Source: Nanobdellota archaeon (GTDB lineage Archaea > Nanobdellota > Nanobdellia > Nanobdellales > Nanobdellaceae). From it: a stretch of 32,000 nt of DNA. Positions 4,893 to 32,000 of this stretch are shown piece by piece. The position numbers and the translations under genes are program-made. The stretch is taken from positions 600,001-632,000 of the forward strand of contig AP031373.1 in the NCBI GenBank assembly GCA_042850255.1. The letters are read 5' to 3'. Positions within the stretch are counted from its first letter, which is position 1. Every line of letters starts with the position of its first letter. Under the pieces are notes generated by a model, which saw only the letters and a list, made by a program, of their open reading frames with translations, was not told the DNA's origin and did not search any database.

Positions 4893-4897
4893 TATTA

Positions 4898-4998: not shown

Positions 4999-5022
4999 AT
5001 ATACTTTTCTAATTATTTAACC

Positions 5023-5030
5023 TTATAAAA
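5023..5030. promoter_or_regulatory. TATA box candidate, possibly shared by the divergent tRNA-Met and uS11 genes
   Basis: TTATAAAA lies 25-32 nt from the tRNA 5' end (4998) and 23-30 nt from the uS11 ATG (5053). It is flanked by A/T-rich BRE-like sequence on both sides. Confidence 0.4.
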
Positions 5031-5052
5031 TTATTTTTTATGATATTCTTTT

Positions 5053-8578: not shown

Positions 8579-9956
8579 AATTCTCTTGTCTTAAACTTAT
8601 TTTTAAATTTTTTATAAATTCTTCATAATTATTTTTTTCTAATAAAAATCCTCCAAAATTGTCAAATGTAGAATAATATATTAAATTATTATCGAATAAT
8701 TTTTTTATTATATTATTTATTATTTTTTTATTTTCTTCCCTATTAGTTTTTATTAGTCCTCTATATAAATTGTCATTTATTTTATATAATAATAAAAATA
8801 CTTTTCCATCAATTATTTTTTCTTTTATCAATAGATTAATTAATAATGATAAATAATAACCATTTCCATAATTTTTTTCAATATTTATTATTTTTAATCC
8901 ATTTTCGTCCTTTATTTCAACTTTTCCTTCTATTATGTCATATAATAATTTTGAAAAATTATTTCTCAAATAACTTTCAGATTCTTTTATTACATCAACA
9001 GGATATTTTTTTAAAAAATATAATATACCTTCTCTTTTATTGTTTTCTATTAATCCTTCTATATCATATAATAATTCTAATATATCTCCAATTTCTCCAT
9101 TCTTATTTATTTTATATATTTCTCCAATTATATCTTCAGTTCTTTGGAGATTTTTTCTTATTTTTATTTTAATTATATTACTAACTAATTTCTTTAAATC
9201 ATCATCACTTAAATCAGTGTATACTATATTTGCAATACCTTTATTATTTATACTCAATTCCTTTAATAAATTCATAGCTTTTTCATCACTTCCAGTTATA
9301 TCTGGTATAAAAAAATTAAATGAAGAACTTAAAGATTTATATAAAGGTTTTGTAAAAATACCTGGTAAGTTTATTCCAGAAACCTTTGATATTATATCTT
9401 CATCTTCTAATTCTTTTAGTATTTCATTATTTATATTTAAAAAATCGTATATATTCCCAACTAAAGATAAATATAATAAATCTTTTGCATGTGGGTATAT
9501 CATTTTCGCTAAATAATAAATTATATTTGATGTAGATATTTCCTTATATCCATCTATATTAAATAAATTTGGATTAATATTTACTACATTATTTAATTCT
9601 AAATCTTTAGAACTAATAAAATGATGATCAATTATATATATTTTTTTCCTTATATCCTTGTTTATTTTTATAATTTCATCAGAAAATAGAGAACCATTAT
9701 CTAAAAATATAATATTATCATATTCATATGAATTTTCTCCAATTAATAGATCTTTTACATTATTTTTCTTAATATAATCTAAATATGTTAAATGCATTTC
9801 TACATTCTTTTTATATAAATAATTTGATAATAATATTAGTGAAGATATACCGTCAGGATTTAATGAAGAAATTATTAAAAAATTTTCTTTATTTTCTATA
9901 GACTTATTTATTCTTCCAGATATATCTTCTAAATATGATAAAAACCTATTGTTCAT
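8571..9956 (-). CDS. RecJ/Cdc45-like DHH-family protein with degenerate catalytic motifs
   Basis: DHH retained (IIDHHF) and IIFLDNGS retained. Motif I is reduced to SLNPDGIS, and the DHHA1 GGGH position reads NFGGFLL. The start overlaps the uS15 stop (ATGA). Confidence 0.6.
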   Translation of the reverse strand: MNNRFLSYLEDISGRINKSIENKENFLIISSLNPDGISSLILLSNYLYKKNVEMHLTYLDYIKKNNVKDLLIGENSYEYDNIIFLDNGSLFSDEIIKINKDIRKKIYIIDHHFISSKDLELNNVVNINPNLFNIDGYKEISTSNIIYYLAKMIYPHAKDLLYLSLVGNIYDFLNINNEILKELEDEDIISKVSGINLPGIFTKPLYKSLSSSFNFFIPDITGSDEKAMNLLKELSINNKGIANIVYTDLSDDDLKKLVSNIIKIKIRKNLQRTEDIIGEIYKINKNGEIGDILELLYDIEGLIENNKREGILYFLKKYPVDVIKESESYLRNNFSKLLYDIIEGKVEIKDENGLKIINIEKNYGNGYYLSLLINLLIKEKIIDGKVFLLLYKINDNLYRGLIKTNREENKKIINNIIKKLFDNNLIYYSTFDNFGGFLLEKNNYEEFIKNLKISLRQENFI

Positions 9957-13301: not shown

Positions 13302-15107
13302 ATGAGAACTTTTAACTATTTGATTGAGATAATATTAGTTATATCATTAATACTTGTATATGTTACAACAATAAGATTTCCATCTTCTCCATCTTCTTAT
13401 ATTTCTGACTTTAATAAAAAATACTTACTATATAGTGGTCTGGGAAGTACTTATAATAATAATTTTTTATCTTATATTCAAACAAACCAATTTGATATAA
13501 TATCTTATCTATATTATTGGTTATTTTCTGGAGATCTTTCATATTATGATCTAAAGATGAGTTTTTATTATCCAATAAATTTTTATAATTTGGGAAATTA
13601 TTCTTGTTATGAATTTTTATTTCCATTTCCATATTTAGGTAGTAATCTTTATTATACTCAGCCTATAAATGGTATTAATCAGAATTTTTTCTTAATATAT
13701 AATGAGAATCAAGATCTATGTGGAAACTTTACATCTACATTAGACTGGAATATGTTAATAGTAAATTATTATACTTCAAATAATATTTCTTTATATTTAA
13801 ATGTTTCAAATTTAATAAATAATATTATAGATCCATATTCATTTTTTGCTTATAATATAAATTTATATCCAATACAAATTAGTTATTTGAATGTTTCATA
13901 TGTTTCTACAAATTTAGGAATAGTTCCCGTAGTAAATTTATCATTAAATTTACCTCCAAATTATAATTCTCCAATAATAATAATATTTAGATCAGAAAAT
14001 AAAACATATAATTTCTTGAATTTTAATAATTATCAATTAGTTAATAATTTACCTGCTCAATATGTTTCTTATTCATATTCTTCATTTGGTTGGGAAACAT
14101 TATATGTATCTCCTCGATGTTTTGATAGTAAAAATATATTAACCTTTACAAATAATGATCAATTTCTTAATTTAACAAATTCTTCATACTATCCATCTAC
14201 ATTATCTGGAAATACTTCTATAACTATTGTAGCATGGATCTATGTAAATAGCTATTATTCTTCTTCCTGTGCAGATGGAGAAAATTATGTATCTGCGCTA
14301 GCAACTATACCAGGAGTAAATAGTTATCCAGGATCTACATTTAGACAAATATTATTACCAATAAATGGACAATATTATATTGGGGTAGATGAGAGCAGTG
14401 GTGTAGGATATCTACCAAATTATCCAATACAACTAGGACAATGGATATTTGTTTTTTGGATATATAATAATTCTGATGAAAATTTCTATGGAGGATTTAT
14501 AAATCAAACAGGATTATATTATGGGCGATTACAACCTGCATCTGGATTTAATCAATTGTATCCTTTAAATTTATATTATCCACCAAATGAAACATTATAT
14601 CTAGGAACTCCTACTTCTTTATATTCACCCGTTTGTTCTTTTTTAGGTAGTATATATGTAATAGCATTTTATAATAAAGCATTAAGTATTAATCAAATAG
14701 AAAATATATATTATAGTGAAGATTTTGAGCAATACAATCCAGTATTAATTTATTATGGGTATAATTATAATCCAAATACAGGAATTTTATACGGAAATAA
14801 TCAAAATTATAATTTACAAGCATATAATAATCCTGTATTAGTAAATTCTATATTACCATATGATCAATTAATAATAGATTATTCTATACCTCCAAATTAT
14901 CAGGATCAGATACAATCTTCTAATATTAATATTTCATATTGCTATCCAGTACCAACTTATTATCCATATCCATTAATTCCTTCAATACAATATGATTTTT
15001 GGGATTATTTTGGTGTAAGCCCAGTACCAAATAATTATAAATTTGATAGCAGTATAGTATTTCCATATGGCCTAGGATTTTCTAAATTTACAATCTATGG
15101 CTCGTAG
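13302..15107 (+). CDS. large sequon-rich surface protein with LamG/ConA-like lectin domain
   Basis: N-terminal anchor LIEIILVISLILVYV. LamG-type pattern at about 14150-14720: SITIVAWIYVNS ... GQWIFVFWIYNNSDENFYGGFIN ... ETLYLGTP ... FLGSIYVIAFYNKALSINQIENIY. At least a dozen N-x-S/T sequons. Confidence 0.7.
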   Translation: MRTFNYLIEIILVISLILVYVTTIRFPSSPSSYISDFNKKYLLYSGLGSTYNNNFLSYIQTNQFDIISYLYYWLFSGDLSYYDLKMSFYYPINFYNLGNYSCYEFLFPFPYLGSNLYYTQPINGINQNFFLIYNENQDLCGNFTSTLDWNMLIVNYYTSNNISLYLNVSNLINNIIDPYSFFAYNINLYPIQISYLNVSYVSTNLGIVPVVNLSLNLPPNYNSPIIIIFRSENKTYNFLNFNNYQLVNNLPAQYVSYSYSSFGWETLYVSPRCFDSKNILTFTNNDQFLNLTNSSYYPSTLSGNTSITIVAWIYVNSYYSSSCADGENYVSALATIPGVNSYPGSTFRQILLPINGQYYIGVDESSGVGYLPNYPIQLGQWIFVFWIYNNSDENFYGGFINQTGLYYGRLQPASGFNQLYPLNLYYPPNETLYLGTPTSLYSPVCSFLGSIYVIAFYNKALSINQIENIYYSEDFEQYNPVLIYYGYNYNPNTGILYGNNQNYNLQAYNNPVLVNSILPYDQLIIDYSIPPNYQDQIQSSNINISYCYPVPTYYPYPLIPSIQYDFWDYFGVSPVPNNYKFDSSIVFPYGLGFSKFTIYGS

Positions 15108-17091
15108 TCAATTATATTTATATACTACTGTAGTTTTATTATTAACATTATTATATTTTTTATCAAATTTAGATACAATCTCACAAGAATTACAATTTTA
15201 TTCTAATGTTTATCCTAAATATGGGGAAATATATAAATTAGAAAATGGGAATTATATATATCAGAATATAATAAATTTATATGGATCTACACTAATTCCA
15301 TTTACAGTTTATTATAATTGTTCTTATAATTTATTACAAATTCCAAATTATTTTAATTCAACTCATGTAATTGTATTAGATCAAGATTTTGATTTTTTAC
15401 CTTCCTATCCATCAAATGATTTTGTCACATTCGAAATAATAAACAATAATTCTATAGAATATCAAAATAGTTATTGTATATTTAATGGGTATGAAGTATA
15501 TAATAACAATTTTAATATAACATTTCAAGAATCTGGAAATAATTATTATCAAATAATATTTTATCCACAGAGTATTTTTACTATAAATAAACAATATTTA
15601 GATGAATTAAATAATATATATTCAGTTAATTTTCAATATTTAAATAATTATCAATGTTTATCTGGGCAAATAAATTCTATATCTTTACAGAAAGTATTAA
15701 CAGGAATTACCATTAATTATTTAAATATTAGTAATGCTGTATTAAGTGGAAATAATGTACAAGTAACATTATTCAATGATAATGTTTGTCCAATTAATTT
15801 AAATTATATTTATTATGATAATTATGATATTCCAGAATTTGGTACTAGTTTTAATACATCTTCAGGAAATTATATAATAAATCAAAATCAAGGATTATTA
15901 GTTTATTATAATTATACTTATGATGATTTGTATTTTTGTTTAGAATCTTTGGGAGAACAAAATTGTATACCAATAAATAATGTACCTGTAGAATATTATG
16001 TTCCTTTAACTATTTATAATTCACAAAATATTCCAACTCCACAACCATTTCAGCAAATGATTTATATTCCAGATAATTCTAATATTTATAACTATATAGA
16101 TTCTAATGGACAAAATGTATTATTCTTTAATCCAATAAATGGACAAATATTTTATTCATGGTTTGAAGGTAATAATGGTACTGGATATATTTGGTGGGTA
16201 AAGATTCCAAATGGGATACCTGCGAATAGTAATTATACTATTTATATGGGAATTGGATCAAGTACTACAGATTATTACCAACTATTTTATCCTTATGTAG
16301 GTGCGTCTCCACAAGTTATTCAGGGATATGATAATGGACAAAATGTATTTATAGCATATGGATACTTTAATAATAATTTTAATGGATGGAGTGGATATAT
16401 CTTTTATGATAATTTTGCTCCTAATGCAACGCCTTACGGAATTGAAATGCTAAATGGTACTAATACCGGATGTGAAGGAACGTACATCTTGCCTCCAAAT
16501 AATGAAAATATTCTTGAAATACCATTAATTGTAGAAGAAGCTTGGTATGAAAGTTCTGGGGCAGATGCAAATACTATATCTTTATTTGGAAACACAAATA
16601 GTCAAGTTTTTGCAGATAGTGTAGGTCCTATTACTTGTGGCGGAGGTACACCTGCTTCAAACTCTTCTACATTTGTACAGTTTGAATATTATCCTGGAAC
16701 TTGTAATCAACAATATCCTGACCCAGCTTATTATTTAAAATCTGCATATGCCAATAGTATACTATCTTGGACATCTTTTACTACATCTGCAGGTACATTT
16801 TATACATATTTAATTGTTAACAACACTTATGCACAAACTGGTTGGTATCAATATAGTTCTTCTCAAGTTTGGGCACCTTTAACATTATTAGATACATATT
16901 CTATTAATCAAAATTCATCTACTTATGCTAATCTAAATTATAGTCCATTCCAATATCCTACATTAGAAATAGGAGCTGGGGATTGTGCACCTTCGTATCA
17001 ATATGTAGAATGGGTAGTTGCTAGAGCATATCCTCCAAATGGTGTTATGCCTTCAATTTATACAGGAAATCTAAACCCCTGGCCGCCTTAA
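15097..17091 (+). CDS. large sequon-rich surface protein with DUF2341-like plus C-terminal jelly-roll-like domain
   Basis: N-terminal anchor LYTTVVLLLTLLYFL. DUF2341-like stretch at about 15991-16260: YYVPLTIYNSQNIPTPQPFQQMIYIP...NVLFFNPINGQIFYSWFEG...GYIWWVKIPNGIPANSNYTIYMGIG. C-terminal YVEWVVARAYPPNGVMPS resembles the W-V-R-x-Y..P.P ending of such modules. The start overlaps the upstream gene by 11 nt. Confidence 0.65.
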   Translation: MARSQLYLYTTVVLLLTLLYFLSNLDTISQELQFYSNVYPKYGEIYKLENGNYIYQNIINLYGSTLIPFTVYYNCSYNLLQIPNYFNSTHVIVLDQDFDFLPSYPSNDFVTFEIINNNSIEYQNSYCIFNGYEVYNNNFNITFQESGNNYYQIIFYPQSIFTINKQYLDELNNIYSVNFQYLNNYQCLSGQINSISLQKVLTGITINYLNISNAVLSGNNVQVTLFNDNVCPINLNYIYYDNYDIPEFGTSFNTSSGNYIINQNQGLLVYYNYTYDDLYFCLESLGEQNCIPINNVPVEYYVPLTIYNSQNIPTPQPFQQMIYIPDNSNIYNYIDSNGQNVLFFNPINGQIFYSWFEGNNGTGYIWWVKIPNGIPANSNYTIYMGIGSSTTDYYQLFYPYVGASPQVIQGYDNGQNVFIAYGYFNNNFNGWSGYIFYDNFAPNATPYGIEMLNGTNTGCEGTYILPPNNENILEIPLIVEEAWYESSGADANTISLFGNTNSQVFADSVGPITCGGGTPASNSSTFVQFEYYPGTCNQQYPDPAYYLKSAYANSILSWTSFTTSAGTFYTYLIVNNTYAQTGWYQYSSSQVWAPLTLLDTYSINQNSSTYANLNYSPFQYPTLEIGAGDCAPSYQYVEWVVARAYPPNGVMPSIYTGNLNPWPP

Positions 17092-20259: not shown

Positions 20260-20919
20260 ATGTCTATATTATTTGAAAGTAGACCAAAAGAAGTTGAAGA
20301 ACTAGATAAAATTAAATTAAAAGTTAATATTCCGTTTATAAATCATTTTATAGATGTAAACGAATTTTATAAAATATTAGAACATATAATTGAAAATAAA
20401 AAACTTAGAAATGATATAATAAACGAAATATATAACGTTGTAAAGTCTTATGGAAATAGTAATAAGGAAATGATTATAAGATTTATTAAAGAAATACCTA
20501 AGAATAACTATAAAATGAGATTGGAAGTATTATATCGTAATAAAGAAAATATTATAGAGGTAAATGGAATATATTATATTAAAATACATAAATTGAATAT
20601 GGTAGTCACACCATTACTTGTTATTGATGATGAAGAAAAAAGTAAATTAGAAAAAAGAATTAGCGATTTTCTCCTTAAAAATAAAATTAATACAAATCTT
20701 GCAAAAGGTATAGTAGAAAGATGCGAATTTCTAATTAAGAATCCTTATGGTTCTAGAGAACCAATAGGAAATATTCTTTTTACTGAAATACCTGGAAATT
20801 ATAACTATAGATTAGGATATTATGTAGATGAAAGAAATAAATTCATTGTTTTAGTTGGAATATATAAACATATAAATGGAAAAATAAATCCAAATAAACC
20901 AGAAATAAAATTATTATAA
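20260..20919 (+). CDS. hypothetical protein; C-terminal RelE/ParE-like module, apparently internally duplicated
   Basis: The C-terminal NPYGSREPIGNILFTEIPGNYNYRLGYYVDERNKFIVLVGIYKH resembles the RelE/ParE pattern (L.G....YR.R.G.YR..Y..d......+..+.HR). A cognate segment IKEIPKNNYKMRLEVLYRNKENIIEVNGIY occurs in the first half. Confidence 0.4.
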   Translation: MSILFESRPKEVEELDKIKLKVNIPFINHFIDVNEFYKILEHIIENKKLRNDIINEIYNVVKSYGNSNKEMIIRFIKEIPKNNYKMRLEVLYRNKENIIEVNGIYYIKIHKLNMVVTPLLVIDDEEKSKLEKRISDFLLKNKINTNLAKGIVERCEFLIKNPYGSREPIGNILFTEIPGNYNYRLGYYVDERNKFIVLVGIYKHINGKINPNKPEIKLL

Positions 20920-21660
20920 TTTTTCTATTTTTTCTTTAAAATTATAATATCTTTCTAGTAGATCTTTAAATACATCTAAATCAATTTTATCAATTTCTTT
21001 ATGTTCTATTTTCTTCATATAATCATAAACTTCTCTAAAATACTGTTCTATATCTTTTAAAGATCTATTTTTTCTTTTTAGTTCTCCTAATTTTATTATT
21101 ATATCTTCAGGTCCATATACATTTATTTTATTTTTAATCATATAGTATTGTAATAAAGATAATGCAGAATTATATAAACTTTCAAATGATTTTATCAATA
21201 AAAAATTTGAATAATTGATTAATTCTTCAGATCTTTTCTTTAATATATCTAAATATTCTGGAGACGTTTTTATTAATCCAGATTCTAACATTCTTTTTAA
21301 TGATCCGAATATTCCTGTAGGATCTATTATTGGATATCCTTTTCTCAATATATCTAAAACTAATGGATCTCCATTTAATATCATCTCCCAAAATTTTGTT
21401 AATGTTAATGTTGTAGGATGTATTTTTTTATATTTTTCATTTGCTAATATTTTATTTAAATTATCAAAATAAAATGGAACCGTTATATTTAGATCTTTAG
21501 CATAAATATCGTCTACAATTATTAAAATATCAATATCAGATTTTTCATTTTCTTTATTTTCAGCATAAGATCCAAATAAAACTACTGCTTTAACTAATCC
21601 ATCAACTTTATCAACTAATTCTTTGGTAAAATCTATTAAAATATTAAATATATCATCCAT
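20914..21660 (-). CDS. nucleotidyltransferase (Pol-beta/MNT superfamily) fused to a C-terminal helical, KNTase_C/HEPN-like domain
   Basis: VVLFGSYAENKENEKSDIDILIIVDD (GS...DxD), followed by about 130 aa of predicted helices. Confidence 0.7.
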   Translation of the reverse strand: MDDIFNILIDFTKELVDKVDGLVKAVVLFGSYAENKENEKSDIDILIIVDDIYAKDLNITVPFYFDNLNKILANEKYKKIHPTTLTLTKFWEMILNGDPLVLDILRKGYPIIDPTGIFGSLKRMLESGLIKTSPEYLDILKKRSEELINYSNFLLIKSFESLYNSALSLLQYYMIKNKINVYGPEDIIIKLGELKRKNRSLKDIEQYFREVYDYMKKIEHKEIDKIDLDVFKDLLERYYNFKEKIEKL

Positions 21661-21670
21661 AAAAAAATAA

Positions 21671-23083
21671 TCACTCTTGTAATTTTTTAATATTTCTTGT
21701 ATGTAATTCTCTTATATCATTTATATTTAAATATATAGTTGCAAGTCTATCAATTCCCAAACCCCAAGCTAATACAGGATAATTTATATTAAATTGTTTT
21801 AGTAATTCTTCTCTAAATACTCCTGCACCTCCTACTTCTATCCATCCCAATTTAGGATGTTCTGCATATACTTCTACAGAAGGTTCTGTAAAAGGAAAAT
21901 ATGCAGGATAGAATTTAATATTCTTTGCCTTTACGACATTTATTACTAATTCTTCTAAAATTCCCAATAAATCTAAAAATGTTAAATTATCCTCCAATAT
22001 AATTCCTTCCAATTGATTAAATTCTATAAAATGTTTTGCATCAATTGTATCGTATCTGAATACTTTTTCTATTAAAAAATATTTACCAGGTTTTTCAGGA
22101 TTTAATAATGTTTTAGATGATATTGCAGTATTATGTGATATTAACATTGCTCTTTTTGATATATTATCATTAAATGTATTAAAATATTTTAATTGTGTTT
22201 CCTTTACTTTTTCAAATAATTCTTTTGGAAAATCTTCTATATATTCTGGTTTAATATAAAATGCATCCATTATTGATATATCTCCTGCAGGATGATCTTG
22301 TGGTACGAATAATGTATCTAGATCCCAGAAATGTGATACAATTAAACTATATTTATCCATTTCTCTAAATCCCATCGATATTAATTCTTCCCTTACTTTA
22401 TCTAAGAATTCTAAATATGGATTATATCTTCCAATTTTTTCTTCTTCAATATTTATTCTAATTTCATATGGTCTGAATTTTTTATTTTTATATAATTTTT
22501 TATCTATTACTTCTTTTGTATACTTTTCAATATATTCTTCAGGTTTATATTCTTTTAATACTTTTTTACCATTTTCATTTATTTTTGCATAATAATATAT
22601 TATTTCCTTTTCTTCAATTATTCCCTTTCTACCTTTAAATAAATTAATTATATTTTCATCATAATCATTATTTTTTATTTTTTCTAAGTATTTTTCATAT
22701 GTTTCTATATCTTTTATAAATGTTATTTTTCCATTTTCAATTTTTATTGCTCCATTTTTTCTTAAAAATCCTAAAGAATATGATATTTCATTTTTATCAA
22801 AATAATTATTTAATTCTTCTAGACTTATTTCTTTCTTTTCTTTTAATAAATTCAATAATTTTCTTTCAGGTAATCCATCTTTTAAATATTTTTCTCCCAA
22901 TTCTGTTAATACATATTTTTTAACCCTTTTTTCTTCCAAATCAATTAAATTTTTTTCTTTTAAGAATCCTAATGTTCTTAATACTTTATAACTATCTAAA
23001 TTTAATTCTTTTGCAATTTCATTTAATTCTTTATAATTATCAGATAAAATACTTAATACTTTATATTCAATTTCAGATATCAT
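21671..23083 (-). CDS. pheS: phenylalanine--tRNA ligase alpha subunit (archaeal type)
   Basis: Class II motif 2 VFRYDTIDAKHFIEFNQLEGI, motif 3 AWGLGIDRLATIY. N-terminal winged-helix repeats typical of the archaeal/eukaryal alpha subunit. Confidence 0.9.
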   Translation of the reverse strand: MISEIEYKVLSILSDNYKELNEIAKELNLDSYKVLRTLGFLKEKNLIDLEEKRVKKYVLTELGEKYLKDGLPERKLLNLLKEKKEISLEELNNYFDKNEISYSLGFLRKNGAIKIENGKITFIKDIETYEKYLEKIKNNDYDENIINLFKGRKGIIEEKEIIYYYAKINENGKKVLKEYKPEEYIEKYTKEVIDKKLYKNKKFRPYEIRINIEEEKIGRYNPYLEFLDKVREELISMGFREMDKYSLIVSHFWDLDTLFVPQDHPAGDISIMDAFYIKPEYIEDFPKELFEKVKETQLKYFNTFNDNISKRAMLISHNTAISSKTLLNPEKPGKYFLIEKVFRYDTIDAKHFIEFNQLEGIILEDNLTFLDLLGILEELVINVVKAKNIKFYPAYFPFTEPSVEVYAEHPKLGWIEVGGAGVFREELLKQFNINYPVLAWGLGIDRLATIYLNINDIRELHTRNIKKLQE

Positions 23084-24713
23084 CTTTTATATATTTCATT
23101 AATTTTTTTATGCTTATTTCAAATCCTGTTAATGGATAATTTATATCTAATTTTTCTAATAATTCTGGATTTATTTCTCCTATCCATCCAATATTTTCAT
23201 TTACATATATATCACCTTGCCTTCCTTCAATTAAAAATCTATGGTTAGAATTTTTTATTTCATAATTTATCTTTAATTCCTTAAATAATCTTTTCAAAAC
23301 TTTTAATGAATCATTTATTGATACTTCATAATTTGAATAAATAAATAATAAATTAATATCTTCATTAATTTTATTATTTTCTAAATATGCAACCCTATTT
23401 ACTTCAAATATTTTTGCAGGGAATGAAATTTCGGTTCTTTCAGATAATAATTGTAAGAATGATGTTAATAATGATAATCTTACAGAATTATAATTATTTG
23501 ATACAGGATTTATTAATTCTATTATATTTTTATTTTCTTTTAATTCATCATTTATATCTTTTCTAGATAATACTGGAGTATATATTTCAATACAACCCAT
23601 ATTTACCATTATTTTTCTTATTAAATTCATTATTTTTCTTTCTTTTGATAATTCTCCCTTTGTGTATATTTTTATTTTATTTGGTTTTAAATTATTATAT
23701 CCATAAGCAATTAATATTTCTTCAATTATATCATATTCAGATATTATATCATCTCTATAATTTAAATATTCTAATATTAATTTATTATTTTCAATTTTTG
23801 CATTAAATCTCTTTTTATTTAAATATTCAATTATTTGTTCATTATTTAAATTTATTCCTAAATATTTCTTTATTTTATTTAAATCAAATTCTTTTTTAAC
23901 TATATTTAATTGCGGAGTTTTTAATAATTTATCAGGATATATAATATCTACAGAATAAATTTCTCCCCCCCAATCTTTTAATGTTAATATTAATATATTT
24001 AAAGTAATTAATAATTTACTTAAATCTGTTCCAGATACATCAATAAATATATTTTTTGTATCATTATTTAATTTACCAATTTTATTTGAATTTATTATTG
24101 GAGGAAATGATATTATATCATTTTTTGAATCAATTAAAATATAATATTTTTCATTTAATATATATCCATATTTTTTACCTGCTTCAGTATTTTCCAATAT
24201 TTCTTTTAATGTATATTCTTTATCTTCTCCCAAAGGTATAAATTTCGTATTAGGATTTGCTAATTTAAAATATACAGGGAATTGAATTAGATCAAAATTA
24301 TGAGTTCCAATTGCAACCTTTTGTCTATTTCTTCCATAAGATTGAGAAATTTTTTCTTGTAATTGTATTAGATCTTTTAATCTATCTTCATTTAAATTTA
24401 CATTTTTTACAACTGCACCTACTATATATCTATCAACATTTTTATCAACAATTAATTTATAATCCGAATTATTTATTTTTACTTCAGGTACTCCTTTTTC
24501 AATATTCAATATTCCCTTTAATTCCCTTGCAATACCATTAATACAATATAAATCTGGTCTATTAAAATCTTTTACTTCTATTTTTGCATAATTATTATCT
24601 ATTTCATCTAATTCACATTTTATATTTAATAAATATTCTTCTAATTCTTCTTTAGATAAAACTTTTCCTATAGATTTGTATAATTCATTTAAAGATACAT
24701 TAATAACAGCCAT
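23073..24713 (-). CDS. pheT: phenylalanine--tRNA ligase beta subunit (archaeal type)
   Basis: 546 aa. B3/4 region AIGTHNFDLIQFPVYF. It overlaps pheS by 11 nt and shares one base with the upstream stop (TAATG). Confidence 0.9.
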   Translation of the reverse strand: MAVINVSLNELYKSIGKVLSKEELEEYLLNIKCELDEIDNNYAKIEVKDFNRPDLYCINGIARELKGILNIEKGVPEVKINNSDYKLIVDKNVDRYIVGAVVKNVNLNEDRLKDLIQLQEKISQSYGRNRQKVAIGTHNFDLIQFPVYFKLANPNTKFIPLGEDKEYTLKEILENTEAGKKYGYILNEKYYILIDSKNDIISFPPIINSNKIGKLNNDTKNIFIDVSGTDLSKLLITLNILILTLKDWGGEIYSVDIIYPDKLLKTPQLNIVKKEFDLNKIKKYLGINLNNEQIIEYLNKKRFNAKIENNKLILEYLNYRDDIISEYDIIEEILIAYGYNNLKPNKIKIYTKGELSKERKIMNLIRKIMVNMGCIEIYTPVLSRKDINDELKENKNIIELINPVSNNYNSVRLSLLTSFLQLLSERTEISFPAKIFEVNRVAYLENNKINEDINLLFIYSNYEVSINDSLKVLKRLFKELKINYEIKNSNHRFLIEGRQGDIYVNENIGWIGEINPELLEKLDINYPLTGFEISIKKLMKYIKDDI

Positions 24714-24973
24714 TAAACCTCAATACCCAATTTCTTTAAAATCTCTTGTTCTTTTTGTTTATTCTTTATATCCTTTCTTGATATTCCTCTATATCTTGCG
24801 CATGCAGGGCAAATATATATTTTCATAGGACTAGAAATAATTAAAGTTGGGTTTTGACCTTCAGAAACATCAGGTTTTAATTTTGGAGAAATAACCAATT
24901 TTATTGCCTTATCCAATCTTACCATCCTACCACAATAATAACAAGGTACGTATTGGTACTTTTTTTCCTTCAT
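24713..24973 (-). CDS. probable 30S ribosomal protein eS26, N-terminally short
   Basis: VPCYYCGRMVRLDKAIK ... IYICPACARYRGI matches the eS26 pattern (V.C..CG..VP.DKAI ... Y.C..CA.H). Basic C-terminal tail. Confidence 0.6.
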   Translation of the reverse strand: MKEKKYQYVPCYYCGRMVRLDKAIKLVISPKLKPDVSEGQNPTLIISSPMKIYICPACARYRGISRKDIKNKQKEQEILKKLGIEV

Positions 24974-25194
24974 TTTTTATTATTATTTGATTTTATCATT
25001 TCAGCCATAGCATTATAATATATAAGTAAGATTTTTTAATTTTAAGACTTAATCATGGGAAAAATTTCCGAAAATTCCTTATTCTTAATTATATGGATAC
25101 TATGTATTAAAAGTTTTCTATTTATAAATTTTTGTTTACCTTGGATATTCTAAGTAAACAAGTATTTATAAATAATTGTTTCCTTAATATACTT

Positions 25195-26442
25195 ATGGTA
25201 AACGATTTAAAGGAAAGATTATTATTATGGAAAGAATGGGAACCACCTAAATTAATAGAAAGAGATATAAGATTACCTGAAGGAAATGATATAATTGCAA
25301 TTATTGGACCTAGAAGATCTGGAAAAACTTATTTAATGTTCCAAATAATTAAAAATTTAATAAATAATGGTGTACCAAAAGAAAATATATTATACATAAA
25401 TTTTGATGATATTGTTTTTAGAAAATATGATTTAAATAAAATATTTGAAACTTATTTTGAACTATTTAATCCAAAAGGAAATATATATTTATTTTTTGAT
25501 GAAGTCCAAGAATTAAAAGATTATCCAGTATGGTTAAGGACTTTACATGATAGAGGATACAAAATATTTATTACAGGATCTTCATCAAAACTAATGATTA
25601 AAGAAATAAGTAAAGAATTGAGGGGTAGATATATTTCAAAAATACTTTTACCATTTTCTTTTAAAGAATTTCTAAAATTAAAGAATTTTAAATTTGAAGA
25701 TACTTCAGAAAAAAGAGGAAAAATAAAAAATTTATTGCTAGAATATTTAAAATTTGGGGGTTTTCCAGAAGTATTATTAATTGAAAATAATATAGATAAA
25801 ATAGAAAAACTAAATTCTATATATGAAACAACATTTTATAGAGATTTTGTAGAAAGATATAAAATTAGGGAAATAAATATTGCAAAGGAATTATTAGAAT
25901 ATTTAATATCAAATATATCTAATTTTATATCAATATCTAGAATTTATAATATATTTAAATCTATAAATATTAATGTTTCTAAAAGAACATTATGGAAATA
26001 TTATAATTATATTCTAGAAAGTTTAATATTATTTGAATCAAGGTTATATACTTATTCTAAAAGAAAAGAAATAATAAATCCTAGAAAAATATATGTAAAT
26101 GATCTAGGTATTGCAAACTTATTTAAAGATTATGAAATCGGATATTTAATGGAAAATTTAGTATATTTAGAATTATTTAGAAAAGGTATAGAACCAAATT
26201 ATTTAAAAATAAATGGTAAAGAAATAGATTTTCTATATAAGGAAAATAATTTGTTAAAATTAATAGAGGTTACATATGAAGTTGATGAGGAACATATAAA
26301 TAAAGTAAAAAAAGCTTTAGATTTTTTAAAGATTAGTGAAAGTTTAATTATTAGTTGGAATGAAGAAAATGAAATAAAATATAATAATAAAAAAATAAAT
26401 ATTATTCCTTTATGGAAATTTTTATTAAATACTACTTTATAG
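25195..26442 (+). CDS. AAA+ ATPase of the AAA_14/DUF4143 (COG1373-like) family, copy A
   Basis: Walker A IIGPRRSGKTY, Walker B LFFDEVQ, ITGSSS, LRGR, GGFPE, ERYKI. C-terminal nuclease-like EIDFL...LIEVTY and IIPLWKFLLN. Start moved from the TTG at 25132 to ATG 25195 by alignment with copy B. TATA-like gtatttataaat lies about 25 nt upstream. Confidence 0.85.
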   Translation: MVNDLKERLLLWKEWEPPKLIERDIRLPEGNDIIAIIGPRRSGKTYLMFQIIKNLINNGVPKENILYINFDDIVFRKYDLNKIFETYFELFNPKGNIYLFFDEVQELKDYPVWLRTLHDRGYKIFITGSSSKLMIKEISKELRGRYISKILLPFSFKEFLKLKNFKFEDTSEKRGKIKNLLLEYLKFGGFPEVLLIENNIDKIEKLNSIYETTFYRDFVERYKIREINIAKELLEYLISNISNFISISRIYNIFKSININVSKRTLWKYYNYILESLILFESRLYTYSKRKEIINPRKIYVNDLGIANLFKDYEIGYLMENLVYLELFRKGIEPNYLKINGKEIDFLYKENNLLKLIEVTYEVDEEHINKVKKALDFLKISESLIISWNEENEIKYNNKKINIIPLWKFLLNTTL

Positions 26443-27370
26443 AAAAATAGTATATTCCTATATCATTAGCATAATTTGATACATTTCCTGGTACTATATA
26501 TTCTATTACTCCATTTACTGGTTCTATTTCCAAAATTGGTTCTGGATTTATAGGTTCTATTAATATACCCTGAGAAAATAAAATATTATTATAGTAATAA
26601 GATATAAGTTTTGGAATATATTCTATTACATTATTATAATCTATGTAATATTGTTTTATTATTGTAAATGTTATAGAATAATTATTTGTTGTTGTAATAT
26701 TTATAACATATATATTTTGTTTTATTTCCAATGGTTGTAAAATTATTTGTGTATTATTTCCTAATATTTTTTCTAAAATATTTTTTATTTCATTTTCTAT
26801 ACTTTGATTATTATTATATAATAAATAACTTTGCTGATATATTATACTAACATTATTTATATATTGTATTGGAATAATACTTTCTATTTCACCTTCTATA
26901 CCCAAATTTTCCAATATATTTTCTATATTTTCTGTAACATTTTCTGGAGCTTCTGGTATATTAGTTAAGGAAGAAAAAGATATAACATTTAGCGTAAATT
27001 CTTTTTGTAATGGTAAAATAACGGACCTATTTCCAGATATCAGTTCTAAATATTCAAATGTATATATATTTGAATTAGAAATAAAAAATATAGCATTATA
27101 ATCTTTATAATTATTTGTATAAAAGTCTACACTACAAAAAGATTGATTATTATTTGTTATTAAACATAATTTATTTACATTATTTATATTTAAATTTATT
27201 GGATAATTTGGAGAAATATATATTTCAATATATGGATTCCATTGTTGATAATTTAATATTGTATTTGGACCTGATACTATTATACTTGGAGGAGACCATA
27301 AAGGAAATATTATTGTTAATATAAATAATATACCTGCTATAGGAATACCTAAATATTTTTTAATTTCCAT
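26432..27370 (-). CDS. secreted or membrane-anchored Asn/Ile-rich protein
   Basis: N-terminal anchor GIPIAGILFILTIIFPLW, many N-x-S/T sequons, no family recognised. Divergent from 27422..29554. Confidence 0.55.
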   Translation of the reverse strand: MEIKKYLGIPIAGILFILTIIFPLWSPPSIIVSGPNTILNYQQWNPYIEIYISPNYPINLNINNVNKLCLITNNNQSFCSVDFYTNNYKDYNAIFFISNSNIYTFEYLELISGNRSVILPLQKEFTLNVISFSSLTNIPEAPENVTENIENILENLGIEGEIESIIPIQYINNVSIIYQQSYLLYNNNQSIENEIKNILEKILGNNTQIILQPLEIKQNIYVINITTTNNYSITFTIIKQYYIDYNNVIEYIPKLISYYYNNILFSQGILIEPINPEPILEIEPVNGVIEYIVPGNVSNYANDIGIYYFSIK

Positions 27371-27421
27371 TGTTTTTTTATTCTCAAAAAAATATAAAAG
27401 TATTATAATGAAACATATTTT

Positions 27422-29554
27422 ATGAATATTAATAAAATAAAGTTATTATTAAAATCCGAATATTTTTATCTATTTTTAGTAGTTTTATTATTATCTATAG
27501 ATATTACAAGATTTGGAAATATTTATAATATAGATCCAGATATTTTTCCATATTTTAACAATATAGTTTCATATAAATATTTTTTATCAACATTCTATAA
27601 TTATAATCCTTGGTTAGGTAATATAAATAATTTTAGCATAGTTTCTTTTATTTCTTCATTTCCCTTATTTTTATTTTCTCATATAATATTATCTTTTTTC
27701 TTTCTTTATTTATTTTTATCATTCATAGGATCAATATTTGTTTATAAAATGGTAAAGGAAATTATTGGAGATAATTCTATTTATTCAAAAATATCTGGTA
27801 TTTTATCAGTTATATTTTATATTATTGCTCCTCAATTTTTTAATTTAACTTATGGAGATCCTTTAGGTATATATCAATATTATACAATACCGATTTTTTT
27901 ATATTCTATAAGAAAATATTTTGTTTCAAATTTTAAAGAAAGTATTGGATGGTTTTTTATATTTATACTTACTGGACTGTTATTATTTTATTATAATATC
28001 CCCGTTTATGCACTACCATTTTTTATATTATTTTTAATATTTTTCATATATTATTCTATAGTTTCTATAAGGAAAAAATATTTTGGTAGAGTTATTTTAT
28101 TATTATCTTTAATTTTTGGATTCTTTTTTATTAAATATTCATTTATTATCTATGAATATAATTTATATACAAGTAATATGCATTTTTTAAGAACATCTTT
28201 CCAATTCTGGATGGGAAATTCACAATCTTTACCTTTATTAACAACATTAACGGGAAATCATATATTTTATAATCCATTATATCAATATATATTTATTTTT
28301 ATCTTACCAATAATTTATTCTTTTATAATTTTAAATAAAAAAGTATCTAAAAATAAAGAAATATTATTTTTCTTTATTTCATTTCTAATATTTACATTTT
28401 TATATTCAATGCCGAATGTTCCTTTTTCATCATTTTGGGAAAATTTATTTTATAAATATCCAATAATGGTTGATTTAAGGACTCAATATATTATTATAGC
28501 ACCATTCCAAGGATTTTTAATGGTATATTTAATTGGATTTGGTATTTATGGAATATTAGATTATATAAAAGATAAATTAGGTAAAATTAAAAAATATATA
28601 ATTTATATTTTATTACCAATAATTATTTTAGGATCAAATGCAGATTTAGTATTATTTGGAAGTCCAAGTATTGTTTATATTCCTTCTCAATTTTTAAATA
28701 CAGTTAATTATATTAATTCTCATACAAGTTATACAAATAATGTTATAATCTATCCAATATTTGTTACAGAAAATAGTGAAACCTGGTATAAAGGTAATAA
28801 TATATTTTCATTATTTTTAAAGCCAAATACAATTTTAGGTGGATATTATTATAGTGTTAATAGTTATATTGAAAATATAATTTATAGCGAATATATGAAT
28901 ATTTATAATTCAGATACTTCAAAAAATGCAATAAATTATAATAAAAATTTCTTTTATTTATTTAATGTAAAATATATAATATTTGAAAAGGATGCTATAA
29001 ATACAACAATATTACCAATATATCCATATACATATTTTGTTAATAATACAGTTTCTGGTTTAAATAATTATCAAAATTTAGGAATTATTTCTCTAGTTTA
29101 TAATAATTCATTATATTCAGTTTATTCAACAAATACTAATTCTTCTCTAATATTTTTATCTTATAATAATTATCCAATTGATTATTTATTAAATTCAGAT
29201 AATATTACTGGATTATTAATACCATTAGAAATAGAATATATTTCTCCAATAGAGTATAAAGTAGATATAGATCCTGAATATCTGGATAAAAAAGTATATT
29301 TATATTTTATGATTCCTTATGTAAATGGTTGGAATATTGAAGGAGGAGAATTATTAAATGAAACAAATTATTATGGATATACGCAATTTATTATTATTCC
29401 TGAAAATAATACAATAATACTCTATAATCCTTTAATACAAAATTCAATAAATAAAGGGTTATTGGAAGTATTTTTAGAAATATTATTACCTTTAATATTG
29501 TCTGGAATATTATATAAATTTAGAAATAAAATACCTGAAATAAAATATTTTTGA
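27422..29554 (+). CDS. 710-aa polytopic membrane protein, GT-C glycosyltransferase-like architecture
   Basis: More than 10 hydrophobic helices in the first 420 aa or so. The first loop has YNIDPDIFPYFNN (a D-x-D-type acidic motif). There is a sequon-rich soluble domain of about 260 aa and a final TM, LLEVFLEILLPLILSGILY. Confidence 0.5.
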   Translation: MNINKIKLLLKSEYFYLFLVVLLLSIDITRFGNIYNIDPDIFPYFNNIVSYKYFLSTFYNYNPWLGNINNFSIVSFISSFPLFLFSHIILSFFFLYLFLSFIGSIFVYKMVKEIIGDNSIYSKISGILSVIFYIIAPQFFNLTYGDPLGIYQYYTIPIFLYSIRKYFVSNFKESIGWFFIFILTGLLLFYYNIPVYALPFFILFLIFFIYYSIVSIRKKYFGRVILLLSLIFGFFFIKYSFIIYEYNLYTSNMHFLRTSFQFWMGNSQSLPLLTTLTGNHIFYNPLYQYIFIFILPIIYSFIILNKKVSKNKEILFFFISFLIFTFLYSMPNVPFSSFWENLFYKYPIMVDLRTQYIIIAPFQGFLMVYLIGFGIYGILDYIKDKLGKIKKYIIYILLPIIILGSNADLVLFGSPSIVYIPSQFLNTVNYINSHTSYTNNVIIYPIFVTENSETWYKGNNIFSLFLKPNTILGGYYYSVNSYIENIIYSEYMNIYNSDTSKNAINYNKNFFYLFNVKYIIFEKDAINTTILPIYPYTYFVNNTVSGLNNYQNLGIISLVYNNSLYSVYSTNTNSSLIFLSYNNYPIDYLLNSDNITGLLIPLEIEYISPIEYKVDIDPEYLDKKVYLYFMIPYVNGWNIEGGELLNETNYYGYTQFIIIPENNTIILYNPLIQNSINKGLLEVFLEILLPLILSGILYKFRNKIPEIKYF

Positions 29555-29578
29555 AAATATTAAACAAAATATAATAAT

Positions 29579-29920
29579 ATGGAACAAAAACAAATTCAAT
29601 CTGAGATATTAAATAAAATTAAACAAATTATCTTAGATACTGCTAATAATTATAATATTAAAATAAATAAAATTATATTATTTGGATCTAGGGCTAGAGG
29701 CGATTATAGAGAAGATTCCGATTGGGATATATTAATTATAACTGAAGATAAATTAGATAGAAAAATAGAAAAGGATTTTTATTCAGATGTATCATGGGAA
29801 CTTACTACAGACGATATAATTCCAGCAATAATAATTGTTTCAAAAGAAGAATTTGAGAAATATAAAGATTTAAAAGGTTTTATATATTATTGGGCAGATA
29901 AAGAAGGTATAATACTATGA
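29579..29920 (+). CDS. minimal nucleotidyltransferase (MNT)
   Basis: ILFGSRARGDYREDSDWDILIITED (GSxxRG ... DxD). 113 aa. The stop overlaps the HEPN start (ATGA). Confidence 0.85.
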   Translation: MEQKQIQSEILNKIKQIILDTANNYNIKINKIILFGSRARGDYREDSDWDILIITEDKLDRKIEKDFYSDVSWELTTDDIIPAIIIVSKEEFEKYKDLKGFIYYWADKEGIIL

Positions 29921-30297
29921 AAGAAGATACGAGAGGATTATTAATAATTGCAGAAGATGATCTAAAAGTAGCTAAAGATAATTATAAATTAAATAATTAT
30001 GTAGTAGTTACATTTCATTGCCAACAATCTGTAGAAAAATATTTGAAGGCATATTTAAATTATAAAACAGGATTTCACCCATTTGTTAATTCTATAACTT
30101 ACTTAATAAAGAAATGTATGAAATTAGATAAAGATTTTGAATATTTAAAAGATATAAAAGCAAATATATTGGAAGAATATTATATTGCATATATGTATCC
30201 AACTTTGATGAAAATTACTGAAGAAGATGCAAAAGAATCAATAGATATTGCAGAAAAAGTAAGAGAATTTATATTAAAGAAATTAAATATTCAATAA
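29917..30297 (+). CDS. HEPN domain protein (classical HEPN family partner of MNT)
   Basis: LIIAEDDLKVAKDN, FHCQQSVEKYLKAYL, LEEYYIAYMYP (cognate of L..YYIPTRYP). 126 aa. Confidence 0.75.
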   Translation: MKEDTRGLLIIAEDDLKVAKDNYKLNNYVVVTFHCQQSVEKYLKAYLNYKTGFHPFVNSITYLIKKCMKLDKDFEYLKDIKANILEEYYIAYMYPTLMKITEEDAKESIDIAEKVREFILKKLNIQ

Positions 30298-31539
30298 CCA
30301 TTTCCATAAGGGTATAAATTTTATTTTTCCTTTTTTATTAAACCACGAAATTTCTTTCTCATCTTCATAATCCCAAGTTATTATTATTAATTCTGGATTA
30401 TGTTCTTTAAATAAATCATATCCATGTATTAATGATCTGATTTCTCTTTTATCTATTTCATCATAATTATTTGCATATGTTACATTAATTAATTTAGTTA
30501 TTTCATTATTTTCCTTTATTAAAAAATCAATTTCATATTCATTAGTTTGAAAATAATAAATATTATCCATTAAACCTTTTCTAATAAATTCCAAAAATAC
30601 AATATTTTCCATCTTTCTTCCAATTCCATTTTCTTCCAAATCTAATGATGTATCTGATAAATATACTTTTGGTTTTGATAAATAGGATTTTTTAATAGAA
30701 TAAGAAAATTTTCTTAATAAAAATATAGATAATGTTTCTGGAAGTAAATAAATATATTTCCTTATTGTTTTATTACTAACTTCAGTTATTTGCTTTAATT
30801 GTTTATATATTTTATTTATTGATAATATATTACCATTTGATTGTATTAATGAATACAATAAAAATCTTGCAACTTCTGTATTTTCTATTTTATATCTTTC
30901 AATAAAATCTTTATATAATACTACATTAATATATTCTTTTACAAATTCTTTTTTACTTATTTTTTCTAATACAATATCTGGAAATCCTCCATTTTTTATA
31001 TAATCATATAAATATCCTTCAATTTTTGATATTTCTCTATTATACAAAGGTTCTTTTATATTTATTTTTTTAAATAATAAATATTCTCTAAAAGATAAAG
31101 GTAGTAATATTTTATCAATAAATCTTCCCCTTAAATTTGTAGCAATTTCTTTTGATAATAATTTTGATGAAGAACCTGTAACAATTATTTTATATTTTTT
31201 TCTTTCTACTAATGAATATAAAAAATTTTCCCAATTATTTAAACTTTGTACTTCATCCAAAAATATATATTCAGGTTCTTTTTTATATATTTCTATATGT
31301 TCATTAATAATATCCATAGGATTAATATTTCTTACTTCATAATCTTCAAAATTTACAAATAAATAATCTTCTTCCTTTAAATTTAATTTTTTAATTAAAT
31401 AATATAAGTAAAAACTTTTACCAGATCTTCTAGGTCCTATAATTACTGTAGGATAATTAATATTTATTTCTAATTCTCTAGGATAAACATTTAATTCATT
31501 AACTTCCCTTTTTACTCCTATTAAATAATCTTTAATCAT
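30283..31539 (-). CDS. AAA+ ATPase of the AAA_14/DUF4143 (COG1373-like) family, copy B
   Basis: Walker A VIIGPRRSGKSF, Walker B IFLDEVQ, VTGSSS, LRGR, GGFPD, ERYKI, EIDFL...LINVTY, FIPLWKWLLNI. Confidence 0.85.
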   Translation of the reverse strand: MIKDYLIGVKREVNELNVYPRELEININYPTVIIGPRRSGKSFYLYYLIKKLNLKEEDYLFVNFEDYEVRNINPMDIINEHIEIYKKEPEYIFLDEVQSLNNWENFLYSLVERKKYKIIVTGSSSKLLSKEIATNLRGRFIDKILLPLSFREYLLFKKINIKEPLYNREISKIEGYLYDYIKNGGFPDIVLEKISKKEFVKEYINVVLYKDFIERYKIENTEVARFLLYSLIQSNGNILSINKIYKQLKQITEVSNKTIRKYIYLLPETLSIFLLRKFSYSIKKSYLSKPKVYLSDTSLDLEENGIGRKMENIVFLEFIRKGLMDNIYYFQTNEYEIDFLIKENNEITKLINVTYANNYDEIDKREIRSLIHGYDLFKEHNPELIIITWDYEDEKEISWFNKKGKIKFIPLWKWLLNI

Positions 31540-31575
31540 TATATATTATTATATTAAAAATAATATAAATTTATT

Positions 31576-31617
31576 CCATAAGGGAACAATTTTTCTAAAT
31601 TTTTTAATCCCTTATGG
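31576..31617. repeat. perfect 10-bp inverted repeat CCATAAGGGA / TCCCTTATGG with 22-nt spacer
   Basis: Arms at 31576-31585 and 31608-31617, read directly from the sequence. It lies in the divergent intergenic region between ATPase copy B and the next ATPase gene. Confidence 0.75.
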
Positions 31618-31664
31618 TATAAAAATACAATAAAAATTATATTGAATATTAACGATTATATTAT

Positions 31665-32000
31665 ATGTCAAACTTTATAGAAAAGGTACATATAGAAAAT
31701 TTTAAATCAATAGATAGTATTGACTTAAATTGTAAAAGAATTAATATTTTTATTGGTCCTCCAGGTTCTGGTAAATCAAATATTTTAGAAGCAATTGGAT
31801 TAATATCAAAATATACTTTAGATAAATTTCCTGAATCCATTAGAATACCAAAATATAAAGGAGACAATGAAATAGTATATAGAGAAATGTTTAATTATAA
31901 ATATTTAGTTGTTAATTCTGATCCTGTAAAAATAAGGATTAATGATGGAGAATTAAATATATATGAAAATGTAGTTTTATATAAATTAGATTATGTTAGA
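31665..32000 (+). CDS. SMC/RecF/OLD-like ABC-type ATPase, N-terminal fragment (runs off window)
   Basis: Not in the ORF track because it has no stop in the window. ATG 31665 is open to 32000 (112 codons): MSNFIEKVHIENFKSIDSIDLNCKRINIFIGPPGSGKSNILEAIGL, the typical I.NFKS...G.NGSGKSN.LEA N-terminus. The minus-strand ORF 31661..31867 is its shadow. Confidence 0.7.
   Translation, partial: MSNFIEKVHIENFKSIDSIDLNCKRINIFIGPPGSGKSNILEAIGLISKYTLDKFPESIRIPKYKGDNEIVYREMFNYKYLVVNSDPVKIRINDGELNIYENVVLYKLDYVR

Follow-up and report, generated by a model that had tools for sequence, protein, structure and literature searches.

Background

The closest described counterparts of the two ATPases treated here belong to PDC-S01, one of 145 untested single- or multi-gene defence candidates (bioRxiv 10.1101/2024.01.29.577857), which consists of an ATPase fused to a PD-(D/E)xK domain, ranks fourth in frequency among the "defence" types of prokaryotes with an enrichment in Archaea, and is pending validation (PMC12988326). 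DUF4143/COG1373 has been placed in the PD-(D/E)XK superfamily with its function left unassigned (PMC3424549). Two diverged members of this family, here called copies A and B, lie at 25.2-32 kb of the stretch analysed in the present study, a window of 32,000 nucleotides (contig AP031373.1, positions 600,001 to 632,000; numbered 1-32,000 below, such that sequence downstream of the region was seen only to 32000). It comes from YN1, 'Ca. Nanofervidus parviconus', a cultured Nanobdellota ectosymbiont of Sulfurisphaera ohwakuensis with 889 coding sequences and 23.4% GC, for which type I and type IV restriction-modification only, and no CRISPR, are described as defence (PMC11420986).

An earlier interpretation, made from the letters of the window and here termed the sequence-only reading, had described A and B as inverted paralogs bracketing a four-gene cassette, followed by an SMC/OLD-like ATPase, and had likened the whole to a defence or conflict island. 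According to our analysis, the stretch of 25.2-32 kb is probably a lineage-specific accessory region of independent small modules that lie together by chance, and not one paralog-bracketed system. We regard the modules as independent because a predicted glycosyltransferase of the GT-C fold located between the copies has its homologs in glycan clusters, the orphan gene beside it has no homologs, a pair of nucleotidyltransferase (MNT) and HEPN genes is self-contained, and the ortholog of B in Nanobdella aerobiophila MJ1 stands among other neighbours.

Results and discussion

The paralogous ATPases A and B

Copy A (YN1_7060, BFI73719.1, 415 aa) is situated at 25195..26442 on the plus strand and copy B (YN1_7110, BFI73724.1, 418 aa) at 30283..31539 on the minus strand; NCBI gives "ATPase" as the product name of both. 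The two proteins are 40% identical over 412 aa (BLASTP E 1e-72), every shared motif listed in the sequence-only reading is visible in this alignment, and its estimate by eye of an old duplication at about 35-45% identity agrees with the measured value, A and B being two old paralogs. Pfam identifies AAA_14 (E 2e-36 in A, 1.8e-35 in B) and, above the gathering score in both, DUF4143 (PF13635; 2e-12 in A, 3e-17 in B). The PADLOC hidden Markov model (HMM) of PDC-S01, PDLC04787, is matched by A over profile positions 21-408 of 412 (E 9e-103) and by B over positions 29-408 of 412 (E 1.4e-89), and both copies belong to the stand-alone AAA_14-DUF4143 family COG1373/PADLOC PDC-S01. Walker A GPRRSGK(T/S), Walker B DEVQ and the TGSSS...LRGR region are intact in both, and GPRRSGK and DEVQ are invariant in an alignment of 16 sequences of the family. 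Sequence and family-profile searches of the PDB for a solved structure of A gave only P-loop-level matches.

Concerning the C-terminal domain, the likeness to PD-(D/E)xK nucleases pointed out in the sequence-only reading corresponds to the affinity already published for DUF4143 (PMC3424549). Motif III was compared among 19 sequences (A, B, 16 homologs from DPANN and other contigs, and one contig-end fragment). It reads (Q/E/N)-V-(T/S)-Y in 18 of them, the contig-end fragment stopping short of the motif, and is Q-V-T/S-Y in most relatives of A and B. With IEVTY in A and INVTY in B, the replacement of the usual Lys by Thr, which had been noticed before, is a trait of the whole subfamily; B is also devoid of the acidic residue, whereas A keeps its Glu. 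The canonical constellation E...D...(D/E)xK is thus absent from A and B, motif III having no Lys. In every aligned sequence that covers this stretch, Glu of the helix (MEN) and Asp of the strand (E-[IV]-D-F) are retained. A near-invariant Lys (DFLxK), at position 349 of A, follows four residues past the Asp and could act as a substitute Lys. Whereas PD-(D/E)xK nucleases possess (D/E)-x-K, the DPANN-type subfamily of A and B exhibits (Q/E/N)-V-(T/S)-Y, and its antiviral role is that of a candidate. The missing canonical Lys would bear on whether proteins of this type cut nucleic acid at all. A and B may be ATP-driven sensors of nucleic acid, cleaving or merely binding it, with each copy acting alone.

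The family behaves like an accessory gene that is independent and present in multiple copies. On 324 plasmids, homologs of B are found singly, annotated as "ATP-binding protein", and tandem arrays of two or three homologs exist in five DPANN contigs (L001, L004, L005, L008, and L010). The first of these contigs is from N. aerobiophila MJ1, the closest complete genome, in which the ortholog of B (80% identity over 418 aa) has as neighbours a truncated paralog and a HIT-like gene as well as a VapB-VapC pair and another AAA_14 ATPase. This locus is devoid of GT-C, orphan, MNT, HEPN and AAA_15 genes. The resemblance of A and B to PDC-S01 comprises the same two domains, the full-length HMM match, the stand-alone, multi-copy and patchy occurrence, and the enrichment in Archaea; the difference is that the two copies in YN1 have diverged and are oriented towards each other, with unrelated genes in between.

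Two further observations concern change within the family. At 7839-9700 of the MJ1 contig, the paralog that adjoins the B ortholog is decayed, consisting of an open reading frame (ORF) of 305 aa without the N-terminal half of AAA_14 and a separate upstream fragment, which shows turnover of PDC-S01 in Nanobdellaceae. In two of the other arrays (L004 9989-14031 and L008 1812-8343), tandem paralogs possess identical C-terminal stretches and differ in other parts, with VDFVIKEGLNIKQLIQVTYASNKDEIEK present in all three copies of L004; this suggests gene conversion within the arrays.

A and B could alternatively be ordinary cellular AAA+ proteins, e.g., DNA-binding regulators or repair factors whose nuclease domain is disabled, and the region a loose housekeeping-adjacent set. 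The subfamily-wide motif III without Lys and the additional loss of the acidic residue in B would suit such proteins, as would the noncommittal NCBI name, a codon usage equal to that of the rest of the window, the position of the three L004 paralogs next to ribosomal-protein genes, and the standing of PDC-S01 as a candidate that has never been validated. However, multiple copies, patchy occurrence, decay into fragments in N. aerobiophila and frequency on plasmids are traits of accessory or selfish genes, and relatives do not have the block at the corresponding locus (see below), such that we consider an ordinary cellular role unlikely.

The region upstream of A (25119..25203) was examined by repeat search. 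It contains two TATTTATAAAT boxes 44 nt apart with nested GTTTAC/GTAAAC palindromes, and the right palindrome arm contains the ATG of A, about 25 nt past the second TATTTATAAAT box. This arrangement suggests a promoter with an archaeal TATA box that would drive a leaderless mRNA, possibly together with a regulator site.

The predicted GT-C glycosyltransferase

The known enzymes to which the large membrane protein of the region is most similar are those of the GT-C fold (STT3/AglB, ArnT, AftD, DPY19). The gene, YN1_7080, encodes 710 aa at 27422..29554 on the plus strand, and its product is 100% identical to the YN1 protein. No Pfam family, STT3 included, matches it at E <= 0.01. An AlphaFold2 model based on 14 homologs (predicted local distance difference test, pLDDT, 73.5; predicted template modelling score, pTM, 0.71) consists of a multi-helix N-terminal membrane domain, a beta-rich C-terminal ectodomain, and a final transmembrane helix, in agreement with the polytopic topology assumed in the sequence-only reading. 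In a Foldseek search of the PDB, the top 14 matches of the model are all GT-C enzymes (STT3, AftD, DPY19, AftA, ArnT), with E-values from 6e-5 to 0.16 and template modelling scores of 0.34-0.49. The protein thus models as a GT-C-fold glycosyltransferase, the polytopic N-terminal module and the extracytoplasmic C-terminal domain expected of this fold both being present. It would transfer a sugar from a lipid-linked donor onto an acceptor outside the membrane. An Asp in the first external loop (D38, in NIDPDIF) is invariant in the 14-sequence alignment; the pLDDT of this loop is below 50 in the model.

Despite the similarity in predicted fold and the location of homologs in glycan-biosynthesis clusters, there are differences from the known enzymes. 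The WWDYG motif of STT3/AglB is absent from YN1_7080, the nearest stretch being the conserved TENSETWYKG, and canonical AglB identity is excluded because both this motif and a Pfam STT3 match are lacking. Furthermore, the family is small. A search of 5.8 billion proteins yielded 13 clusters besides the YN1 entry, those with an attribution coming from Saccharolobus/Sulfolobus (S. shibatae, S. islandicus, S. tengchongensis), Acidianus, and one metagenome-assembled genome (MAG) of Nanopusillaceae, while the other seven stem from assemblies of metagenomes or sequencing runs to which no organism is assigned. Attributed members are hence restricted to Sulfolobales and two Nanobdellota; the search contained no homolog from N. 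aerobiophila, and no viral or plasmid copies were matched.

The gene neighbourhoods of five homologs outside YN1 were compared (S. shibatae, S. tengchongensis, and three metagenome contigs). All five lie amid GT2/GT4 genes, a Wzx-type flippase or genes for dTDP- or other nucleotide sugars (Rml), and no AAA_14/DUF4143 match is listed for any neighbouring gene in these five contexts. The homologs in S. shibatae and S. tengchongensis are surrounded by transposases. In YN1 itself, no glycan-pathway genes are situated near YN1_7080.

In a neighbour-joining tree of the family, YN1 and Nanopusillaceae form a clade with 95% bootstrap support, and a deep split into two Sulfolobales subfamilies, with S. 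islandicus on both sides, is supported by 100%. The tree has no outgroup and thus gives neither a root nor a direction of transfer. Because attributed members occur only in Sulfolobales and two Nanobdellota, and because of this tree pattern, the gene was probably exchanged long ago between the host lineage and the symbiont, any direction being deduced from an unrooted tree. The composition of YN1_7080 is native (18% GC, ordinary codon usage).

An independent assembly of the YN1 culture (Logan DRR287338_336; L014), which corresponds to about 22164-29590 of the window, breaks 36 nt past YN1_7080. MNT, HEPN and B are not indexed from the Logan assembly DRR287338.

The orphan surface protein

The gene next to the predicted glycosyltransferase, YN1_7070, was identified by ORF call at 26432..27370 on the minus strand and encodes 312 aa, again with 100% identity to the YN1 protein. 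One hydrophobic segment at residues 3-34, an anchor or signal, is followed by an Ile/Asn-rich and mildly sequon-rich ectodomain; the number of N-x-S/T sequons is 9 (5.0 +/- 2.0 in shuffles). It matches nothing in Pfam, NCBIfam, PADLOC or PHROG, and among 5.8 billion proteins only itself was retrieved. From these features, YN1_7070 is predicted to be a lineage-specific membrane-anchored surface protein. It is transcribed divergently from YN1_7080 and might, by adjacency, be a partner or an acceptor of the GT-C enzyme, which is speculative.

Taken together, a Sulfolobales-derived GT-C enzyme could tailor glycans on the symbiont surface and, with YN1_7070, thereby influence lineage-specific recognition of or attachment to the host, with PDC-S01, MNT-HEPN and AAA_15 marking the same accessory hot-spot. 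The Sulfolobales-type homologs adjoin dTDP-sugar genes of the deoxyhexose pathway, and a difference of one deoxyhexose has been reported among the N-glycans of cultured Nanobdellales, which is a lead only. We regard this proposal as tentative and rather improbable.

The MNT-HEPN pair

Among described systems, the type VII toxin-antitoxin HepT/MntA comes closest to the two small genes that follow. The MNT gene (YN1_7090, BFI73722.1, 113 aa) at 29579..29920 on the plus strand stands first and overlaps by 4 nt with the HEPN gene (YN1_7100, BFI73723.1, 126 aa) at 29917..30297 on the same strand; both proteins are small, as in HepT/MntA. The presence of such a pair, already recognized from the letters of the window, is confirmed by Pfam, with Polbeta at 2.5e-11 and NTP_transf_2 at 1e-10 in the former and HEPN (PF05168) at E 3.5e-24 in the latter. 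In PADLOC, the MNT matches PDC-S09 (6.5e-18). Its catalytic GS...DxD is intact, the pattern GS-x9-10-DxD being present as FGSRARGDYREDSDWDIL, and alignment to MNTs in the PDB shows FGSRARGDY..DSDWDIL.

In two respects the pair differs from HepT/MntA. The MNT reaches only 35.8 bits with the NCBIfam MntA equivalog, below the cut-off of 60 bits, and the HEPN protein lacks the Rx4-6H RNase motif, no R-x4-6-H being found anywhere in its 126 aa; its YMYPTL aligns with TRYPDAH of TT1696 (1UFB). In layout, the pair follows a type VII toxin-antitoxin. Because the HEPN protein is devoid of the RNase motif, a decayed module or a two-subunit nucleotidyltransferase is the more likely interpretation, and the two genes are probably not an active RNase toxin pair.

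The third ATPase and the palindrome

Beyond B, the window ends within a further ATPase gene (presumably YN1_7120), of which the first 112 codons are contained at 31665..32000 on the plus strand. The partial protein exhibits Pfam matches to AAA_15 (1.8e-10), SMC_N and AAA_23, and its best PADLOC matches are PDC-M31A, HEC-01A and AriA. When the 112 aa were used as query against a word-indexed protein database, short fragments only were retrieved; an exhaustive search of representatives found a protein of 333 aa (P0040) with 77% identity across the full 112 aa. YN1_7270 (P0041; 324 aa), a paralog located about 15 genes further on in YN1, is 73% identical. Both carry AAA_15/AAA_21/SMC_N signals only.

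The designation "SMC/OLD-like" holds for the N-terminal P-loop region, but not for the full protein, to judge from these closest full-length relatives of 324-333 aa. Because relatives of such length leave no room for a Toprim domain or a coiled coil, the protein is probably neither OLD nor SMC; its most likely identity is a short ATPase of ABC type akin to AbiL, HEC-01 and PDC-M31. With AbiL, HEC-01, PDC-M31 and the ATPase part of Gabija/OLD it shares the N-terminal P-loop of ABC/SMC_N type. Unlike in the two-gene candidates AbiL, HEC-01 and PDC-M31, the YN1 gene is seen over 112 codons only and has no partner gene within the window; short AAA_15/21 ATPases usually need such a partner, which here would fall beyond 32000.

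Over the first 59 residues (31665-31841), the partial ATPase is identical to YN1_7270, and the two diverge thereafter, which suggests that AAA_15 paralogs have undergone partial duplication or gene conversion.

Repeat search recovers the palindrome reported previously, CCATAAGGGA-N22-TCCCTTATGG, at 31576..31617, where B and the third ATPase start divergently on either side of it. Nowhere else in the window is the exact 10-mer of its arms found, and no such palindrome was found upstream of the B ortholog in N. aerobiophila (L001). It is possibly an operator shared by the promoters of B and of the short ATPase. The left arm also resembles the IPLWK-encoding stretch that ends the B gene (30302-30322 compared with 31574-31594; 18/21 nt, including the 11-mer TTCCATAAGGG), and both arms would encode P-L-W, in opposite directions. 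Chance could account for this resemblance, as could a fossil gene end or a motif common to both sites.

Comparison with related genomes

Three related contigs were compared at the locus of S26e and phenylalanyl-tRNA synthetase (PheRS), in which PheRS-beta is 75-77% and S26e 87-88% identical to YN1. The order S26e-PheRS-beta-PheRS-alpha is kept in all three, the third contig ending inside PheRS-alpha, and in two of the three the next gene past PheRS-alpha, encoding a nucleotidyltransferase, is kept as well. Two of the contigs extend 6-8 kb past S26e, and there they exhibit a matching ORF pattern of unrelated genes; in one of them (L019), Pfam identifies SerRS, a histidine phosphatase, DUF2250, a MiaB-like enzyme, and POR. 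At the S26e/PheRS locus, all three contigs are devoid of island genes. The label of an accessory island given in the sequence-only reading is therefore appropriate: the block is absent beside S26e/PheRS in relatives, so the invariant synteny that would have spoken against this label is not seen in them.

No compositional contrast between 25-32 kb and the rest of the window, which had been suggested as a further check, accompanies this difference in gene content. GC, GC3 and codon usage of the island genes match the remainder (codon usage distance 0.092 compared with 0.091 +/- 0.017), the composition is native, and a recent transfer of the block is ruled out by this equality.

Presence in YN1 together with absence at the same locus in relatives, as well as the inverted orientation of A and B, would fit a mobile element, either composite-transposon-like or integrative, with the paralogs as its ends and the inner genes as cargo, and the transposases around the GT-C homologs in S. 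shibatae and S. tengchongensis point the same way. However, proteins that are only 40% identical are far from the near-identical terminal repeats of such elements: the inverted DNA matches between A and B comprise only 53-65 nt at 74-77% identity, situated at conserved codons, and no long DNA repeats bounding the block were found. Neither were flanking direct repeats indicating target duplication, a recombinase, transposase or integrase domain, or an adjacent tRNA target found for the block, and its composition is fully native. A composite transposon or integrative element is accordingly rejected as an identification, and the mobile-element interpretation, largely refuted already, is exceedingly improbable.

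Some features elsewhere in the window may be mentioned. The nucleotidyltransferase that adjoins PheRS-alpha (20914-21660, minus strand; 248 aa, NTP_transf_2) is 70-74% identical and syntenic in those related contigs that reach it (L019, L020, and L021), unlike the MNT of the island. A tRNA of 101 nt (4898-4998, minus strand) is recognized by Rfam (64.5 bits), is not reported by ARAGORN, and probably contains an intron; it lies within a gene-free gap of 789 nt (4264-5052) with around 30% GC against a background of around 20%. At 13302-17091 on the plus strand, two large adjacent ORFs of 601 and 664 aa overlap by 11 nt and have no Pfam match.

One system or independent modules

The ORF map agrees exactly with the coordinates and features given for all seven genes in the sequence-only reading, including the overlaps of 11 and 15 nt between the 3' ends of A and B and the outer genes of the presumed cassette. 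These overlaps are ordinary for this genome, because seven of the eight convergent gene pairs in the window overlap, by 4-24 nt. The cassette does not hold as a unit: the distributions of its inner genes are unrelated, the B ortholog of MJ1 occurs without it, and no long repeats bound it. The bracketing geometry is best explained by clustering of PDC-S01 paralogs together with local gene turnover, and looks incidental.

All seven genes might nevertheless constitute one integrated conflict system, in which A and B would sense invading nucleic acid, and MNT-HEPN and the membrane and surface proteins would be effectors or outputs that remodel the envelope. Tight packing with 3' overlaps would be expected of such a system, and PDC-S01 in two copies, the MNT (PDC-S09), HEPN and the AAA_15 ATPase are indeed co-localised. 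The gene order, however, was found in no related locus; the genes alternate between the strands and form at least four transcription units, with overlaps that follow the norm of the genome; the GT-C family resides in glycan clusters and the orphan has no homologs; the MJ1 ortholog of B does without the cassette; and the HEPN protein lacks its catalytic motif. An integrated system of this kind is therefore very unlikely.

Several points weigh against our preferred interpretation of independent modules assembled by chance. That 7 kb contain four or five genes of conflict type, in a genome of 773 kb (773,326 bp in the NCBI record that carries exact matches of the A, MNT, HEPN and B proteins), is perhaps not due to chance. 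Defence genes do co-localise, and functional cooperation is compatible with the sequence. In the contig L003 of Aenigmatarchaeota, a PDC-S01 homolog has a type I CRISPR-Cas operon and a small AAA_15 ATPase in its neighbourhood, an arrangement that recalls the neighbourhood of B and the AAA_15 gene and would also suit an integrated system. The copies of PDC-S01 were counted in the window only, so the odds of two of them flanking any cassette are not computable, and the right edge of the island lies beyond 32000, outside the sequence seen. Furthermore, the activities of all components are predictions.

In the Aenigmatarchaeota MAG just mentioned (L003 2238-11167), the operon comprises Cas7/DevR, Cas5, Cas3 and Cas4, and the small AAA_15/AAA_21 ATPase is situated between Cas3 and Cas4.

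The characterization as a defence or conflict island is justified in part. Pfam and PADLOC assign five of the seven genes to families that are candidates for a role in conflict (PDC-S01 twice, the PDC-S09-like MNT, HEPN, and the AAA_15 ATPase), whereas the HEPN protein is degenerate and the two central genes are envelope genes. Equally, the statement that no named system was recognized is true of the arrangement as a whole, but A and B each match the named candidate PDC-S01. The block is a real accessory, partly defence-like island of modules of known type.

Conclusions

The components of the region are further examples of module types that are already known. For the discovery of defence systems, this calls for caution: a layout in which paralogs bracket a cassette resolves, in a compact AT-rich symbiont genome, into such modules and is not to be counted as a new system. 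YN1, for which only restriction-modification had previously been reported, holds at least two copies of PDC-S01, the most archaeal-enriched of the untested candidates, and its co-culture with Sulfurisphaera is a possible testing ground for this family. The most promising lead is the predicted glycosyltransferase that YN1 has in common with the host lineage. With attributed members only in Sulfolobales and nanoarchaeal ectosymbionts, the GT-C family is a concrete candidate for gene exchange with the host lineage that may affect the surface of the symbiont.

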